The notes beneath the pieces are model-generated. The model worked only from the letters and a program-made list of their open reading frames with translations, was not told the DNA's origin and searched no databases. This document shows positions 12,940 to 13,143 of a stretch of DNA of 64,000 nucleotides, piece by piece. The DNA is from Eledone cirrhosa (Eukaryota), in NCBI GenBank assembly GCA_964016885.1, contig OZ024759.1, positions 32,302,001 to 32,366,000 on the forward strand. Direction: 5' to 3'. Positions within the stretch are counted from its first letter, which is position 1. Every line of letters starts with the position of its first letter. The position numbers were made by a program, and so were the translations under genes.

Positions 12940-13143
12940 AGTTTTAATATAGATGAGATTCTACAGGACTAGAACTGTTTCATTCATTAGAAATCATCAG
13001 GAATCCCTGAGATTCCTGATGATTTCTAATGAATGAAACAGTTCTAGTCCTGTAGAATCTCATCTATATTAAAACTGTTATACTCTGCTATGTATTGAGT
13101 ACCTTACTTACTGTGGTTACCTCCGATTCAACCCGGAATAACG
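12940..13143 (+). mobile_element. Family A fold-back hammerhead element with complete tail
   Basis: Inverted arms 12940-13005 and 13011-13076; tail with GAGTACC at 13097; TA tracts on both sides. Confidence 0.85.
13008..13062 (+). ncRNA. Type I hammerhead ribozyme (canonical core)
   Basis: tgagattc-CTGATGA-t ttc taat gaa t-GAAA-cag ttctagtc ct-GTA-gaatctca. 8-bp stem I, 4-bp stem III (acag/ctgt); predicted cleavage after A13054. Confidence 0.85.

Follow-up and report, generated by a model that had tools for sequence, protein, structure and literature searches.

A 204-bp fold-back insertion with a hammerhead motif on each strand in Eledone cirrhosa DNA, most likely a cut-down end of a Penelope-like element

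Layout of the insertion and its surroundings

The stretch of DNA analysed here, referred to as the window, comprises 64,000 nucleotides of Eledone cirrhosa (NCBI GenBank assembly GCA_964016885.1, contig OZ024759.1, positions 32,302,001 to 32,366,000, forward strand), and all coordinates below count from its first letter. The window is microsatellite-rich animal DNA. Its plus strand contains an intronless open reading frame (ORF) for a 571-aa rhodopsin-family receptor (22793-24508; PF00001), which we take to be amine-receptor-like, and its minus strand a solitary 5S rRNA copy (17340-17458, 110.8 bits) beside a (TA)n tract, which is the only Rfam match over the window at the gathering threshold. 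Also present are a 63-bp tandem array that is GC-richer than its surroundings and has three frames open (56000-57060), and a 765-bp direct duplication of 95% identity (44254-45014 and 48675-49438).

The element that concerns us is a 204-bp insert (12940-13143) composed of a perfect 66-bp inverted repeat and a one-sided tail. Its inverted arm (12940-13005, minus strand, 66 nt) and its direct arm (13011-13076, plus strand, 66 nt) are exact reverse complements at 66 of 66 positions, separated by a 5-nt loop (13006-13010) at which the palindrome turns and the sequence of which varies between copies of the family. With 0 mismatches between them, the arms carry no editing footprint. The inverted arm has no tail and its outer end abuts (TA)n directly; the direct arm, the last position of which (13076) is close to the more upstream of the two 3' ends that the family favours, is followed by a 67-nt tail (13077-13143, plus strand) that lies outside the palindrome and ends in (TA)n. 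This tail begins 5 nt before an ACTC...GAGT stem and matches exactly the tail of another copy in the window (31307-31373). Of seven tails that were folded, only one was significant, so the case for the tail stem lies in the recurring motif and not in its energy. The (TA)n target tract on the left (12870-12939) is part of a longer compound microsatellite, and the right flank after 13143 is a (TA)12 tract. One and the same compound microsatellite block is found to the left and to the right of the element (12690-12810 and 13222-13340). No target-site duplication was readable in the (TA)n flanks of the insert, and none is claimed from the common microsatellite block because this block does not abut the right end. 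No reverse transcriptase (RT) or GIY-YIG ORF was found in this copy, beside it or in the window.

Hammerhead motifs and their predicted folding

The preliminary description of this DNA had proposed a palindromic element with a hammerhead on each strand, and a complete core is indeed found on both strands of the perfect arms. The plus-strand motif (13008-13062) is a type I hammerhead with a stem I of 8 bp, a helix II of 3 bp and a helix III of 4 bp. Its stem I is formed by 8 Watson-Crick pairs (13008-13015/13055-13062), its core by 13016-13022 and 13035-13038, and its helix III by 13038-13041/13050-13053, which carries CUAG in a self-complementary loop III. Helix II opens with a U·U (13023/13034), followed by the 3 bp and a variable loop II (13027-13030). 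A GUA is located at 13052-13054, with the predicted cut after A13054, and stem I, the intact core, stem III, GUA and the cut site all agree with what had been proposed. The same holds for the minus-strand motif (12955-13007), in which the core starts at 13000 and stem I consists of 7 bp including one G-U, its outer pairs deriving from the turn of the palindrome. When this motif is folded with its flanks (12950-13016), stem I is predicted to be lost to a local hairpin. Both strands thus display the features of a type I hammerhead, namely a core of CUGANGA, GAAA and UH, three helices and an open helix I.

The motif had also been called canonical, which overstates the case, given that helix II has only 3 bp and starts with U·U, that loop III is self-complementary and that no Rfam hammerhead model matches. 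The G10.1-C11.1 pair and a helix II of about 4 bp are both absent, the U·U and 3 bp standing in their place. The Rfam hammerhead families gave no match over the whole window at the gathering threshold, and none of them is among the 32 matches up to E=10 over 12900-13180. A miRNA precursor considered at 12965-13051 was rejected, as its Rfam scores are under gathering and a generic hairpin explains the matches. With a descriptor requiring a stem I of at least 6 bp, 8 motifs were found in the window and 7 in the 50,917 non-microsatellite bases obtained after simple-repeat masking; as a null, 200 dinucleotide shuffles were searched, every one of which contained 0 motifs. The hammerhead motifs in the window exceed chance. 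Type I hammerheads of other families occur at 9650-9715 (minus), 18783 (minus), 34817 (plus), 36170 (minus) and 41497 (plus), most of them with a short self-complementary helix III. Two unrelated hammerhead-like families (35061-35100 and 11863-11937) also have a U·U beside helix II, at 35065 in the first and, as judged by eye, in the one at 11.9 kb, so that the U·U variant recurs.

The fold of the plus-strand motif by itself is predicted to be weak in its inner helices. For the isolated 55-mer, the predicted probability is 0.93 for stem I, 0.15 for helix II and 0.31 for helix III, and the hammerhead fold lies 0.3 kcal/mol above the predicted minimum. The 16-mer of helix III and loop III is predicted to form a hairpin at -1.4 kcal/mol versus a self-duplex at -12.8 kcal/mol, a value equalled by 12.5% of 840 loop permutations.

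The hairpin of the element is predicted to be very stable, at -108 kcal/mol, and the expectation that read-through RNA would fold into a long hairpin is upheld. Such a perfect duplex of 66 bp, if transcribed, is a plausible ADAR or Dicer substrate. Because the two ribozymes face outward, the antisense arm is transcribed first in either direction. In plus-strand prefixes starting at 12940, the core is predicted to be 93% paired with the arm at 13020 and more than 99% from 13024 onwards, so that its capture by the arm is predicted before the plus ribozyme is complete. Forcing the hammerhead fold in the full element costs 79.6 (plus) or 76.0 (minus) kcal/mol relative to the hairpin. Cleavage had been expected to compete with the hairpin; with the antisense arm made first and the hairpin favoured to this extent, no competition is predicted, barring a transcription start within the 5-nt loop or the opening of the hairpin by a protein. 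The construct that had been suggested for a cleavage assay (13000-13070), which retains 6 nt of the antisense arm, is predicted to misfold, with a stem I probability of 0.012. Apart from PMC3846280, the literature search turned up no work on small RNAs derived from hairpins of this type.

Relatives in the window and in public sequence runs

Three relatives of the element lie in the window, two young ones at 297-408 and 31307-31494 and an older one near 63.8 kb. The sister copy at 31307-31494 (minus strand) has a different turn point and 55-nt arms, the sister copy at 297-408 turns inside the core and has no tail on either side, and the old diverged relative (63770-63923, minus strand) is about 72% identical and consists of a fold-back with a tail. 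The arms of the three young copies measure 66 (12940-13143), 55 (31.4 kb) and 52 nt (297-408), one sister copy has an arm that ends 7 nt earlier, and turn points and arm lengths differ among all four family members of the window. The tailed arms of the copies at 12940-13143 and 31307-31494 differ at only 1 of 128 positions, by which comparison the former is judged to be young. A variant at 13027 is present in both arms of the 31.4-kb copy and in neither arm of the 12940-13143 copy; since both arms share this private variant, the two arms of a copy are likely to come from one template. A search of the window for the upstream sequence of the family returned 2 one-mismatch matches, which is chance level.

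Eight other fold-backs of the window were tabulated, two of them of the same family, and these are also mostly TA-joined and of one-sided layout. In seven of the nine tabulated fold-backs, an (A/G)CTC motif lies 3-15 nt past one arm only, or at the start of the tail. A second fold-back family (3478-3686, 35686-35878, 41990-42300 and 10869-10982) turns inside helix II, so that only the 3' half of the hammerhead is kept. This second family has an 8-nt palindrome in the helix III loop, and its tail has an 11-nt motif in common with the tail of the 12940-13143 element. A further structure (33066-33692) consists of 129-bp inverted repeats, each with an outward minimal hammerhead, around an AT-rich spacer of 370 bp that has no Pfam match.

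The family was followed in public runs, aligned either as contigs (X2, X5 and X6, of which X5 is from another organism) or as RAD reads (X20 and X21). The number of sequences aligned to 13006-13143 is 10,691 contigs in X2, 7,599 in X5 and 207 in X6, and 6,865 RAD reads in X20, counts that do not equal copy numbers. The hammerhead motif is high-copy in this animal and its relatives, and the one studied here is one of thousands of related sequences. The locus had been put forward as a special candidate for experiments, a rank that does not survive its being one of many such insertions.

The public reads also inform on the ends and joints of family members. Two 3' ends are preferred, as 433 X20 reads enter TA after 13076 and 464 do so after 13141. 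Strand switches account for 11 of the 15 listed joints and lie between 13011 and 13032, each joining a different pair of positions, although this clustering is a biased estimate because the query could not show turns further upstream; the other 4 joints are direct back-jumps. Non-palindromic sequence is found in X21, in which 779 reads extend upstream of 13010, and 401 X21 reads have loose ends at 13012 that by eye are an inverted hammerhead. Rare direct partial tandems occur in other copies (joints 13072-13010 and 13066-13010). Across X2, X3, X20 and X21, joints from 13066-13079 back to 13010 make rare hammerhead tandems with a period of about 77 nt.

Sequence variation was tabulated for four public runs aligned on 12998-13066. 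In X3, variants do not exceed 0.9% at the tabulated positions of the core and of helices II and III or 3.1% in loop III, against 5-66% in loop II. X5, from another organism, shows a matching pattern, and the RAD data of X21 contain more noise, with 3-8% variants outside loop II and 24-74% within it. For the U·U (13023/13034), no variant is listed at either U in the four runs. This tally is biased, since an 80% likeness filter removes degenerate copies. The conserved core and stems together with the variable loop II point to selection on the fold, presumably in the source elements. To the left of 13010 the depth drops by a factor of more than ten, which means that most relatives lack the two outermost pairs of the 8-bp stem I. 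By eye, the upstream letters of these relatives, which have a consensus agreement of 0.63-0.69, could pair with 13068-13075 and extend helix I past an internal loop. The 12940-13143 copy has lost the upstream strand of this possible extended helix.

A Penelope-like origin and the making of the palindrome

The insert at 12940-13143 is most likely a cut-down end of a Penelope-like element (PLE), and as such a commonplace case of an insertion pattern already on record. We consider it very probable that it is a young, very short Penelope-type insertion in (TA)n, made of two head-to-head copies of a ribozyme-bearing end, one of them with the 67-nt tail. The assignment to PLEs is putative, being argued from structure and not from a protein. 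Insertions of endonuclease-bearing (EN+) PLEs have a 5'-truncated copy in inverted orientation beside the terminal repeat and a tail at one end, and are biased to TA and microsatellite targets (PMC8557442), and PLEs are further described as having head-to-head palindromic junctions, an inverted pLTR shorter than the direct one and an optional tail (PMC3846280). Hammerheads are carried by PLE terminal repeats, for the most part in truncated copies that lie dispersed and occasionally in closely spaced opposite-strand pairs (PMC4209133). The traits in common are these: an inverted 5'-truncated copy joined head-to-head at the 5' end by a palindromic junction, an optional tail at one end with two fixed 3' ends, a hammerhead inside the terminal repeat, and an AT-rich microsatellite target, (TA)n. 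Direct partial tandems of the terminal repeat, another EN+ PLE trait, are represented by the rare joints in other copies. Compared with the EN+ PLE insertions described in the available text of PMC3846280 and PMC8557442, the differences are that the 12940-13143 element has no ORF, measures only 204 bp in all and has a tail of 67 nt, longer than the published 30-40. With respect to PLE hammerheads (Cervera and de la Pena, 2014; PMC4209133), the motif shares the type I architecture, the self-complementary loop III, the dispersed single copies and the occurrence of opposite-strand pairs, which are reported in Schistosoma. It differs from them in lacking the conserved G10.1-C11.1 pair, in having a longer helix III (4 bp) and a shorter helix II (3 bp) than the minimal PLE motifs, and in the spacing of the opposite-strand pair, which is 5 nt here and 100-700 bp in the portion of that work consulted (PMC4209133). 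A preprint links animal retrozymes to PLE terminal repeats (bioRxiv 10.64898/2026.07.22.740005). No description of the family itself was found in the literature, supplements of the cited papers aside, and the exact 27-nt pattern has 0 matches in metagenome and viral contigs. For two other hammerhead families, 10 adjoining read-through frames were compared with Pfam; the best E was 0.11, with no RT or GIY-YIG. This result, the longer tail, the lack of a readable target-site duplication, the tail-less sister copy at 297-408 and the arm that ends 7 nt earlier weigh against the PLE reading.

Among hammerheads, the axolotl HHR_Amex2 also has a U·U at the base of helix II (PMC7229834). This ribozyme is weak as a monomer (22% in 1 h) and far better as a dimer, and it is arranged in 350-bp head-to-tail arrays that give circular RNA, in contrast to the dispersed fold-back found here (PMC7229834). 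The head-to-tail array of a non-LTR retrozyme is indeed absent from the locus, which holds a single fold-back, and only rare two-unit joints occur in other copies. The Poseidon hammerhead cuts only in the presence of protein and is dispensable for insertion in vitro (PMC11167929). The lack of cleavage by an isolated monomer, which had been named as an outcome that would refute the ribozyme, is an unsafe argument, since for both PLE and U·U hammerheads the accessible parts of these sources describe monomer cleavage that is weak or absent.

A biochemical parallel is the Poseidon protein of Anolis carolinensis, which in vitro cuts AT-rich DNA and extends both target strands, and for which two internal start sites on the RNA bound the tail (PMC11167929). 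The element described here resembles Poseidon in its AT-rich target, in two internal starts that would bound the tail, and in the cutting and extension of both strands that its layout suggests, with the difference that the starts were shown biochemically for Poseidon and are here deduced from end positions (PMC11167929). In the model that we favour, a PLE endonuclease would cut a TA tract and reverse transcription would start at two internal sites separated by about 67 nt. The two reverse-transcription products would stop at the 5' edge of the ribozyme and be joined there, and both DNA copies would derive from the ribozyme-bearing end of one element RNA. A more specific version, which we put forward tentatively and regard as rather less likely to be right than wrong, is that a single (TA)n cut has both its ends extended on the same RNA from two fixed starts 67 nt apart, both copies stopping and joining at hammerhead helix I, so that insert size would be dictated by the folding of the ribozyme, or by an RNA start immediately upstream of it. 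The hammerhead would be kept by selection in the source element, where its activity is likely weak as a monomer and improved by dimerisation or by protein. In the 12940-13143 copy it would be a passenger, which any read-through RNA is predicted to sequester.

Three other explanations have been weighed. A single arm could have been inserted first and the palindrome formed later, through fold-back replication or repair of DNA, or the palindrome could be a fold-back artefact of long-read assembly. The 100% identity of the arms and the fact that the exact turn of 12940-13143 is not seen in any read set speak for this, but we regard it as improbable because the inverted arm ends where tail-less copies of the family end (about 13076) and joins TA instead of mirroring the tail and flank. 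Moreover, other samples show strand-switch joints, both in contigs built from short reads and in raw Illumina reads, and the older copies of the window, with 1-5 arm mismatches, are not fresh chimeras. It is very improbable, in turn, that the palindrome itself is mobile as a fold-back or MITE-like unit with two hammerheads. The frequency of fold-backs in the family and the closeness of their turns (13011-13032) would suit such a unit, which is nevertheless difficult to reconcile with turns and arm lengths that differ among the four window copies and turns that differ among the 11 listed joints, with private variants common to both arms of a copy, with the many non-palindromic family copies and with asymmetric ends that have a tail on one side. 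Differing turn points and the many non-palindromic copies indicate that the palindrome was likely made at insertion.

A selected two-way switch at 12940-13143, in which self-cleavage would compete with a hairpin for Dicer or ADAR, is suggested by the intact cores on both strands and by the very stable hairpin of -108 kcal/mol. We give this explanation hardly any credence. The antisense arm precedes the ribozyme both ways and the hammerhead fold lies 76-80 kcal/mol above the hairpin. In addition, the turn has removed one core or both in sister copies (297-408), which indicates that two intact cores are not maintained, and the copy is young, with no locus-specific conservation or editing trace. 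A Penelope-type insertion in which the palindrome arises at integration is thus the reading that we retain.

As one of thousands and a repeat of a published pattern, the single locus matters little. It is useful, however, as a compact young example for the formation of inverted copies by PLEs and for the role of the conserved hammerhead. If both ends of one cut are indeed extended on the same RNA, these tiny fold-backs would directly document the way in which Penelope-type elements produce inverted ends, and the fold-back family would provide a minimal non-coding template for rebuilding the inverted-end step in vitro. With its conserved U·U and loop III, this high-copy family is also a fair substrate for a monomer-versus-dimer assay, a ribozyme type for which there is precedent.
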